Positions 47,101 to 50,100 of a stretch of 64,000 nucleotides of DNA are shown one piece after another. Position numbers: made by a program. Each line of letters begins with the position of its first letter. The first letter of the stretch is position 1. The DNA lies in NCBI RefSeq assembly GCF_056746865.1, contig NZ_CM163382.1; one strand, written 5' to 3'.

Positions 47101-50100
47101 TTCAGCGTCTCTGCTGTCGGTTAGCTCAAAATCAGTGAACTGACAGGTATGAGGATCATATCCCATATGTAGTCGCCATTCAGCGCTGCCGCCCCCGGGC
47201 GCACTGATTGCTGTTCCATCGACAAGACGCAATCTCTTTCCGCTTGTACAACCCGTAACTGCGGCGCGTACAGCAAGTGTTTGTGCGGCAAGTATGCCAA
47301 ACCAGTCGGCGGCATTCCGCAGCCGCTTCAGGAGAGCCACGTCAGATAATGTTGCAACGTCATGGAGCTGAGCCCATGCAGTGACTTCACGTAATGACAT
47401 CCCCCCGGGGCCGTAAGCCAGCCCCAGACGTAGCAGAGTTGCAGCATCACGAATTTCGCGGCGGCGGGTTAGAGCCCCGGCATTACGTGCCGAAGTATCC
47501 AGTTCTTCGGGCTTACCAATATGGGCCAGAATTGCTGACCAGTTATCGTGAGAGTAATTCATCGGCACGTTAAATCATATCAGGCGTAATACCACAACCC
47601 TTAAGTTAGCGCTTATGGGGACTCCCCCCGGGACAGATATCTAAATCCTGACCTGTCAGAACTCAAAATTCACACCAGCATTCCACGATGCGGATGACCC
47701 ACCTGCAGCAACTGCAACTTTTCCTGCCACATTCTCTGTGAAACGGTAGCCCACGCCCACCGCAATGGCCTGCTCATCACGGTAACCACCAACGGCTGCT
47801 GTCGCGTTAAATTTTCCAACACTGTATGGCTGGAAAAGACCGGCCAGTGCCGCGCTCTGGGCTGCACTCTCCCTTAACTCCTTCCGGTTCTCTTTAATCT
47901 GCTCCTGCATATTATTCATTCTCTCTGTCGCCATCTTCTGCCAGGCTTCCGTCAAATCCAGACGATGACTGTTATTCCTTATCGCTGCTGTATTTGAGGC
48001 TATTGCTGCATCCGTCTGCGCCCTGTTCTTCACAAGCACATCGCTGAGATGTTCTGCCTGGCTTTTCGCTTCTTTACGGACATCCCGTACACTTTTATCT
48101 GTATAAGCCCGGGAAACCTGAACTGTTTCATCCGCTTTTTCTTTTATTTCATCCTGAAGAGCAAGAGAAGATGCATCCGTATACGCCACCGCTGCCGATG
48201 TGCCTGCAATAATATCCCTGCTGAGTTCATCACGTACTGCTGTAACCTGACTGTCAGTATGAGCACGGGCATCTCTGTATACACCGCCTATCTCACCACG
48301 CAGACTGTCTCCCTCTGCCTTCAGTTCATCACGTACTGCTGTGACCTGACTGTCAGTATGAGCACGGGCATCTCTGTATACACCACCTATCTCACCACGC
48401 AGACTGTCTCCCTCTGCCTTCAGTTCATCACGTACTGCTGTGACCTGACTGTCAGTATGAGCACGGGCATCTCTGTATACACCACCTATCTCACCACGCA
48501 GACTGTCTCCCTCTGCCTTCAGTTCATCACGTACTGCTGTGACCTGACTGTCAGTATGAGCACGGGCATCTCTGTATACACCGCCTATCTCACCACGCAG
48601 ACTGTCTCCCTCTGCCTTCAGTTCATCACGTACTGCTGTGACCTGACTGTCAGTATGAGCACGGGCATCTCTGTATACACCACCTATCTCACCACGCAGA
48701 CTGTCTCCCTCTGCCTTCAGTTCATCACGTACTGCTGTGACCTGACTGTCAGTATGAGCACGGGCATCTCTGTATACACCACCTATCTCACCGCGCAGGG
48801 CATCCCCCGACACCCGTACAGCATCTGCAATGGCGTTGTCCATCTGTCCTTTTGTGGCCGCATCACTATCCTTAACACCATCTGAAACATTTATAATCCG
48901 GCGGGTTTCCGGTGCTCCTTTGACACTCTCTCCATATCCCTCAGGCCCGGCACCAACAGATACCACGTTATTTTCTCCCGACACCTGTGAGCCATGGCCC
49001 AGAGCTACAGAACTGGTAGAATCCTGCACAGATGAAAACGCACCAATTGCCGAGCTCTGACGAGAAGAAATAAGTGACGCTGCTTTTCCTGCAACAGTCC
49101 CCCATTCAGAGTCAGCAATAAGTGCATCATGCCCCAGACTCACACTTCCCGGAGAGCTCACAACACCAGAATTATTCCCCAAAAGCACACTACCGTTTGA
49201 ATCTAATAAAAAAGAATTATCACCCACCAACCATACATTTCTTATGTCACCAGACGAACGGCCAGCTACTGAATCCCCAACAAGAAAGCTACTATGTTCG
49301 CCAGGTTGAATCGGTCCGATTAAAATAGCCTGAGCCTGAGCCTGAGCCTGAGCTGAGAGCAGCAGGGCCATACTCACTGCCAGCGCGCTTTTCTTTAAAA
49401 AAGCATCACGTCTTTTAAGCATTCTGTTATTCTCCTGTATTATTACTTCACCAGCCAGAACTGTAGTGCGGAGCAAAAATACAGTGATAAGAATCCTCTT
49501 TTATTAATTTAATAATGCCGGGAATATTATTGTGTATAATATGCGCCCTCAATTTAAGCAGCAGAAAAGCAATGACGAGAAAATCATTAAAATACATAAA
49601 GATAAAACATCACAACTATAATTATAATAAGCGCACTTATTTTAGCATCTGAACATTTAAAGTACTGCTATCACAAAACAATAAAAATCCTGGGTAATAT
49701 CTCTGATGATTGAATGAGAAATTCACGATGTCTGGTGAGAATTCTGTTCAAAACGAGGAATGCAGACGTACATGTGGCAGGCATGGACTTCCACCGATTT
49801 AACTTTTTTCCTTCCTTGTATTTACACATCACACATTTTGCGCTACAAAAATTTCACGTGGCACGCACCACGTGATCCGTAGAAAAGCCTCTTGTTACGA
49901 ATTTCGTAAACCGCACGTCTGTCTGGTCGTGCGGATTTTTTATCCGTCAACTTCACATGAAACCCGCCAGAGCACTGTTTCCGGATTCAGACATCAGGCA
50001 TATTATCATCCACAATGTCGTGAACAAGATCACACTTTTGCAATTCCTTTATTGATCGAAAGCAGTTAATCACGGAAATTAATTACCGGAGTGAAAGCAT

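Follow-up and report, generated by a model that had tools for sequence, protein, structure and literature searches.

Architecture of the predicted autotransporter

The locus described here lies in a 64,000-nucleotide stretch of contig NZ_CM163382.1 (NCBI RefSeq assembly GCF_056746865.1), hereafter called the window, and codes on the minus strand for a trimeric (type Vc) autotransporter whose stalk contains an array of six 99-bp units and whose signal peptide ends in an alanine-glutamine (AQ) tract (Table 1). The sequence of this region matches thousands of Escherichia coli records. The maximal open reading frame (ORF), which a first-pass annotation of the window had taken as the gene, does exist at 49476..47656 and opens with a TTG at 49476; however, this codon is most likely not the one used. 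An ATG at 49422 sits 8 nt past an AGGAGA motif and is equivalent to the N terminus MLKRRD that is common to all RefSeq homologues. On the strength of this spacing and of the shared start of the homologues, the true start is most likely this ATG, giving a product of 588 amino acids (aa).

The domain architecture can be read directly along the chain. The C terminus is a Pfam YadA_anchor domain (PF03895; E = 3.7e-16; 59.4 bits versus a cutoff of 22.7) and matches the solved anchor of YadA (PDB 2LME; E = 2.5e-17), and the Pfam YadA_stalk profile matches over the neck with an E value of 1.7e-4 and 22.3 bits, under its cutoff of 28.4. An AlphaFold2 model of the single chain, which we used for secondary structure only, has a helix in the signal peptide (residues 2 to 27), a series of short strands spaced every 7 to 8 residues between positions 45 and 156 (predicted local distance difference test [pLDDT] score of 70 to 82), as in a β-roll head, and a nearly unbroken helix from 185 to 527 that takes in the whole array. 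The last ~35 residues of the head are kept across the different head types of the family (see below). The model, the Pfam matches, an alignment to EibD, and the hydrophobic periods of the stalk all support the passenger order head, neck, and coiled-coil stalk. The assignment to the trimeric autotransporters is sound on these grounds, in agreement with the "trimeric autotransporter adhesin" of the first-pass annotation as far as class is concerned; the word "adhesin" is carried over from the family, and an adhesive function is accordingly presumed by analogy.

An N-terminal Sec signal peptide is recognizable by inspection, and the model helix agrees with it. It comprises a basic n-region of 11 residues, a hydrophobic core of 12 residues, and a c-region reading AQAQAQAQA, which holds four staggered AXA sites. 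The string GCCTGAGCCTGA has three overlapping matches at 49328..49351 and one at 14747, against 0.02 expected by chance; the latter belongs to a second copy of the gene, where the tract reads (GCTCAG)2GCT and encodes AQAQA. The hexanucleotide copy number thus does differ between the two gene copies in the way that had been noticed earlier, with four AQ pairs in one (AQAQAQAQ) and two in the other (AQAQ).

The stalk array was delimited in two ways. Tandem Repeats Finder reports a period of 99 bp at 48224..48798 (5.8 copies, 98% matches, no indels, score of 1122), and cutting the coding strand in frame yields exactly six units of 99 bp, each encoding 33 aa, in agreement with the six near-perfect in-frame repeats first proposed. 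Three inner units (1, 3, and 4) have the same DNA sequence, and units 2 and 5 carry a synonymous T-to-C change at position 27. The first unit of the array deviates only at its 5' edge. The last one deviates at its 3' edge and shows, in addition, a synonymous change at position 69; among the four central units, a single synonymous site varies.

Each unit contains the motifs YRD and HTD, and within the helical range its hydrophobicity peaks at 33/9 = 3.67 residues. The hydrophobic period of the nonrepeated stalk is 3.70 at aa 404 to 470 and 3.58 at aa 471 to 527, beside the anchor. In trimeric autotransporters, right-handed coiled coils bearing YxD motifs are a feature of the region that leads from the last neck to the anchor (PMC2373917), with left-handed heptads near the membrane (PMC2373917, PMC6555100), and the periods and YxD motifs along this stalk agree with the published rule (PMC2373917). 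The unit also aligns to the coiled coil that follows the neck of EibD (residues 309 to 348) with a single gap of 11 residues, that is, one hendecad.

Table 1. Positions in the window of the autotransporter gene and its parts, the genes downstream of it, and the truncated second copy
Feature	Coordinates	Strand	Basis or remark
Complete trimeric autotransporter coding sequence, 588 aa plus stop	47656..49422	-	ORF; ATG at 49422..49420
5' extension of the maximal ORF, probably an untranslated leader with the ribosome-binding site	49423..49476	-	Residues absent from the homologues compared
Signal peptide, aa 1-32	49327..49422	-	Sequence inspection
(GCTCAG)4GCT tract, encoding AQAQAQAQA	49327..49353	-	Pattern match and reading of the sequence
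Head, aa 33-172, YadA-like β-roll, type "A"	48907..49326	-	Model strands; EibD alignment
Neck and start of coiled coil, aa 173-205	48808..48906	-	Pfam YadA_stalk below cutoff; EibD neck alignment
Six-unit 99-bp array, aa 206-403, variable-number part of the stalk	48214..48807	-	Tandem Repeats Finder; in-frame cutting
Nonrepeated stalk carrying two canonical YTD motifs, aa 404-529	47836..48213	-	Sequence; hydrophobic period
YadA-type membrane anchor, aa 530-588	47659..47835	-	Pfam PF03895; PDB 2LME
IS421 (IS4 family), inserted into the 61-bp spacer that follows the gene	46270..47617	-	Left end approximate
Sigma-70-region-4-like helix-turn-helix gene, split by IS2 (about 44695..46024)	44454..46245	-	
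Truncated paralogue, two AQ pairs, head type "B", cut after ...GAPET	14323..14829	-	Maximal ORF 14263..14883

Copy number of the stalk array and the AQ tract

Far from being invariant among related genomes, the array changes in length between alleles that are otherwise nearly the same. We compared the window with six complete genomes carrying the same head, in which the flanks of the array (615 bp before it and 558 bp after it, 1173 bp in total) show 0 to 2 mismatches relative to the window. Against six units in the window, there are five in PK8276, four in CFSAN061770, three in EC332, two in GF4, five in EF5-18-41, and seven in PKF11. The base at the synonymous position 27 serves as a marker of the individual units, and its order along the array is TC in the two-unit allele, TTC in the three-unit allele, TTTC in the four-unit allele, TTCTC and TCCCT in the two five-unit alleles, TTCTTC in the window, and TTCTCTC in the seven-unit allele. 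These different orders point to several separate events of gain or loss, as opposed to a collapsed assembly consensus.

A wider survey used as its query the conserved neck fused to the conserved 3' part of the gene. It matched 218 of the 5426 complete genomes searched (~4%), in 339 places, all of them on chromosomes and none on plasmids; in a single genome, the conserved 3' part is matched in as many as six places. Array length was then estimated from the spans of the matches in 90 distinct chromosomes, and in 80 of these the intervening length is an exact multiple of 99 bp, ranging from one to seven units: one unit in 10 chromosomes, two in 18, three in 34 (the mode), four in 10, five in 5, and seven in 3. 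The other 10 chromosomes have different lengths and hold alleles with an extra stalk module. None of the 90 chromosomes sampled has a six-unit array as in the window. The carriers are often isolates from poultry and other birds (chicken, duck, and black kite) or human extraintestinal isolates, an impression gained from the records listed.

The AQ tract ranges from two to five copies across the family, and this range is found within each head type. In the protein database, three protein backgrounds, each unchanged at all other residues, occur with either three or four AQ pairs, and one occurs with three, four, or five. The reading frame is kept in every allele that we examined, with one to seven units and two to five AQ pairs. 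Hypervariability between isolates is thus seen in both tracts and is greater in the 99-bp array, and the expectation that stalk length and signal peptide would differ from isolate to isolate is thereby borne out.

Could these differences be created by misassembly of a near-identical array of 200 to 700 bp? An exact lookup of the two- to seven-unit alleles in a collection of 15 billion proteins, mostly derived from short reads, recovered the two-unit form alone, and many members of the corresponding cluster in that collection are labeled "partial," which is the pattern that array collapse and contig breaks would leave; the six units of the window themselves rest on its assembly. Against this, the records compared are assemblies at the complete-genome level, the lengths are exact multiples of 99 bp with marker orders specific to the allele, which is unlike a collapsed consensus, and separate submissions agree on counts, e.g., five units in at least four genomes. 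We therefore consider it very improbable that the differences among the complete genomes are artifacts of assembly. For draft genomes the matter is different: such assemblies probably break at the array and may collapse it, so that typing the locus by gene presence or allele from short-read drafts may be unreliable.

Taken together, we regard it as very likely that the gene encodes an uncharacterized Eib-related type Vc autotransporter whose stalk length is varied by whole 99-bp units and whose AQ tract is varied by slippage. Three chains would assemble into a lollipop-like fiber that is fixed in the outer membrane by a 12-stranded anchor and rises through a long coiled-coil stalk and a neck to a β-roll head; the array would form the outer part of the stalk. 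Replication misalignment, unequal recombination, and slipped-strand mispairing are established mechanisms of repeat-number change. As the units are almost identical, whole units would probably be gained or lost through either of the first two, whereas the (GCTCAG)n tract would change by slipped-strand mispairing. The first-pass annotation had described both tracts as in-frame slippage-prone sites; both are indeed in frame, but changes of 99 bp are better termed replication misalignment or unequal recombination. Since 33 residues correspond to nine whole helical turns, adding or removing a unit would keep both the frame and the coiled-coil register.

By our own estimate, each unit, if fully helical, would shift the reach of the head by ~5 nm (33 x ~0.15 nm), so that one to seven units would correspond to a reach of roughly 5 to 35 nm. 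Steps in the AQ tract would lengthen or shorten the c-region of the signal peptide and thereby the series of tandem AXA sites for signal peptidase; more speculatively, AQ number, if it has consequences at all, would shift the cleavage point or alter processing. Such changes might bear on adhesion, on shielding by O-antigen or capsule, on immune recognition, or on export. An on/off switch of the phase-variable contingency type was considered and rejected: both tracts lie inside the coding sequence, and all alleles examined are in frame. As 6 bp and 99 bp are both multiples of three, neither tract can switch the gene off.

Paralogues, flanking genes, and damage to the locus

The second homologous copy that had been described as a paralogue is present in the window, but it is not an intact gene. 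It shares with the main gene the signal peptide and ~1 kb of upstream sequence (92% identity); its head is ~50% diverged, and near-identity resumes at the head end. Its homology then stops near 14323, beside sul2, and we therefore interpret this copy as a truncated remnant or pseudogene. The resistance block that abuts the truncation point occupies 8972..14323 and contains, besides sul2, the genes tet(A), aph(3'')-Ib, and aph(6)-Id. Located 1.4 kb from the truncated copy is a gene for a 1291-aa serine-protease autotransporter (16254..20129, minus strand), with a Peptidase_S6 domain (E = 5.6e-92) and an autotransporter barrel.

Upstream of the two copies, the sequence is ~97 to 100% identical over ~1 kb, except for a patch of ~90 bp that differs between them (within 49540..49660 and 14950..15070, respectively), 120 to 240 bp before the ATG. 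An inversion of this patch was considered and rejected, as judged by eye; the patch is simply diverged. A promoter scan upstream of the gene returned two sites against 4.3 expected by chance, and the sole promoter-like match on the gene strand (49653..49624) falls inside the patch. Given that these matches are fewer than chance would supply, we claim no promoter.

Every uninterrupted locus examined has, 61 bp downstream of the autotransporter gene, a gene whose 151-aa product contains a helix-turn-helix (HTH) domain of the sigma-70 region 4 type (Pfam E = 2.4e-7) and may act as a dedicated regulator. The window departs from this layout, in that IS421 lies between the autotransporter gene and this HTH gene, which is itself interrupted by IS2. 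The wider neighborhood is a chromosomal island that contains insertion sequence (IS) elements together with members of the YfjI, YagK/YfjJ, and inovirus-Gp2 gene families; a tRNA scan of the window found no tRNA gene.

The IS421 junction, GCTTATGG|GGACTCCCCCCGGG, lies within a GC-rich hairpin right after the stop codon of the autotransporter gene and is the same in the window (47600..47656) and in copy 2 of strain GF4. GF4 has two intact copies of the gene with two units each, and the copy at the IS421 junction has head B. The same IS421-marked backbone thus carries head A and six units in the window and head B and two units in GF4, which suggests either an exchange of head and array between paralogues or a strict target preference of IS421. 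The family as a whole is a mosaic, in which one signal peptide is combined with three or more types of head, one to seven units, and a nearly invariant C-terminal stretch of 215 residues; the flanks of the diverged heads are near-identical, at ~92% over the kilobase upstream and with hardly any difference at the signal peptide and neck. There are two kinds of neck-proximal stalk, one with ~61 additional residues. When searched for among 1.84 billion representative proteins, the family falls into one 50% cluster plus fragments, and more remote matches share mainly the anchor.

These features can be combined into a broader proposal of diversification in three layers, with heads swappable across paralogues, a register-preserving stalk repeat of 33 residues that sets the reach, and an AQ tract giving graded control of surface display, together with the downstream sigma-region-4-like regulator. 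Head cassettes could then be moved by recombination at the conserved flanks provided by the signal peptide and the neck, and the AQ steps could shift cleavage or export. Hints in this direction are the genomes with matches in several places, the near-identical flanks of heads that are ~50% diverged, the IS421 backbone with differing heads, and the AQ changes themselves; as a complete scheme, we hold it to be decidedly unlikely.

Several observations weigh against the main reading given above, of a type Vc autotransporter with a stalk varied by whole units and an AQ tract varied by slippage. All six near-identical alleles have four AQ pairs, which suggests that the hexanucleotide tract is slower to change than the 99-bp array. 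Every unit contains a GG pair, which makes a fully straight helix uncertain, and the mean pLDDT of the AlphaFold2 model is 51.7, a low confidence of the kind to be expected when an obligate trimer is modeled as a single chain. The literature yielded no published name or description for this E. coli family. In EC17CM2, which matches this part of the window most closely, an IS3-family element breaks the autotransporter gene; along with IS421 and IS2 in the window and the paralogue cut beside sul2, this makes for an often damaged locus, which argues against strong constant selection. Finally, in the plasmid-encoded E. coli autotransporter Saa, adherence does not correlate with repeat number (PMC4060028).

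One alternative accepts the variation as genuine but regards it as functionally neutral, the outcome of unstable near-identical repeats in a dispensable and often decaying gene, so that stalk length and AQ number would be without adaptive meaning. The repeated IS hits, the truncated paralogue, carriage by just ~4% of complete genomes, and the Saa result are in keeping with it. What such drift would not lead one to expect is that frame and register are kept in every allele examined across one to seven units, that 80 of the 90 chromosomes have an exact 99-bp multiple, that the C-terminal 215 residues are almost invariant in the family, and that the distribution peaks at three units with no collapse to one. 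Moreover, in the Haemophilus autotransporter Cha, adhesive activity changes with repeat number, according to a review (PMC9704523). We treat neutral instability as a serious rival and give it real, though minority, weight beside variation of stalk length by whole units.

Comparison with Eib proteins and other repeat-bearing autotransporters

Relative to YadA, the protein has the same kind of anchor, the same plan of head, neck, stalk, and anchor, and the same right-handed YxD-type stalk rule, at ~27% identity over ~70% of its length; the homology is remote, and YadA, unlike this family, is plasmid borne and has known ligands. Of the Eib proteins, EibC, EibD, EibE, and EibA all match, full-length homology surfacing only through tblastn and BLASTP. 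By tblastn, EibC and EibD show 32 to 33% identity over 71% of the query, while the EibA match (57%) is confined to the anchor. The identity to EibD is 40% in the C-terminal 225 aa (E = 2e-39), while for the head and neck it is 29% (E = 4e-8). The class and the order of parts are the same: a YadA-like head and a neck are followed by a coiled coil of the YxD type and by an anchor that is highly similar in the two, and in both cases the gene is followed by a small ORF: the ORF after eibD (ORF-156D) is collinear with and weakly similar to the HTH protein (20% identity; E = 1e-4). The differences are an overall identity of only ~30 to 40%, dissimilar signal peptides and heads, and location on an IS-rich chromosomal island as opposed to a prophage; further, no 33-residue tandem array is seen in EibD, the one Eib protein aligned. 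The family is thus a distant relative of Eib, as judged from these alignments, and is chromosomal and sometimes multicopy.

Some database sources label the protein "immunoglobulin-binding protein" on account of this distant Eib homology, and others label it "YadA-like." If the former were correct in function, the unit would multiply a ligand site in the stalk, and copy number would tune avidity and not reach. The matches to EibC, EibD, EibE, and EibA and the alignment of the unit to the coiled coil directly after the EibD neck speak for such a function, and the immunoglobulin-binding sites of EibD reportedly lie in its stalk. In a sequence search of the PDB, significant matches were limited to the YadA anchor and a NadA-like chimera, and the EibD stalk fragment 2XZR scored a nonsignificant E value of 0.28, so that the label is unsupported at this level; a larger EibD fragment does not appear among the PDB matches listed even at E values of up to 10. 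Identity to the EibD stalk is low, and the gene lies on a chromosomal island and not on a prophage as the eib genes do; a search of a phage collection gave no close match to it. On balance, an immunoglobulin-binding role of the repeat seems unlikely to us, and variation of stalk length remains the reading that we prefer.

Another candidate considered as a relative, Ec042-0536, the second trimeric autotransporter of strain 042, turned out to be essentially unrelated, with 21% identity in the region of the anchor (E = 0.018); its function is not known according to the strain 042 genome paper.

With regard to variable stalks, one parallel is Cha from a Haemophilus cryptic genospecies, likewise a trimeric autotransporter with a variable number of tandem stalk repeats, each of 28 residues. 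Its variable tandem peptide repeats have been linked to exposure of the head, adhesion, and aggregation (PMC9704523, citing Sheets and St Geme 2011 and McCann 2014). Apart from the organism, the difference lies in the kind of evidence: spontaneous variation within a strain and its phenotype were demonstrated for Cha, whereas here the comparison is between sequences of different strains. The periscope proteins are a further class with length variation, and we rejected membership in it, as the unit found here belongs to the coiled coil of what is presumably a trimer and not to a monomeric chain of independently folding domains; the definition of that class leaves out trimeric autotransporters, although it notes a possibly similar function (PMC9704523).

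Saa offers a second parallel, as an E. coli trimeric autotransporter whose repeat number varies between strains. Its gene is longer or shorter depending on how many direct repeats it has toward the 3' end, and five variants have been described (PMC4060028). Saa is encoded on plasmid pO113, whereas the present family was found on chromosomes only, and a Saa annotation was absent from all 15 plasmid records among the protein-search matches listed. A third parallel is BadA of Bartonella henselae, the product of a repetitive mosaic gene that varies between isolates and lies beside pseudogene copies, for which recombination has been proposed to reshuffle the domain arrays (PMC8859334). The full and truncated paralogues of the E. 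coli family, and the conserved flanks around unlike heads, are reminiscent of this arrangement; BadA differs in being far larger and in that its repeats are whole neck and stalk domains as opposed to a short coiled-coil unit.

If the length variants behave differently, the family would provide a natural series of one to seven units, with steps of ~5 nm on the same head and anchor. Such a series could be used to ask how far beyond O-antigen or capsule the head of an adhesin has to extend in order to function, a question that has so far been addressed experimentally in few trimeric autotransporters. Variation in stalk-repeat number is already known from Cha, Saa, and BadA, and what is new is that this uncharacterized E. 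coli family shows the same.

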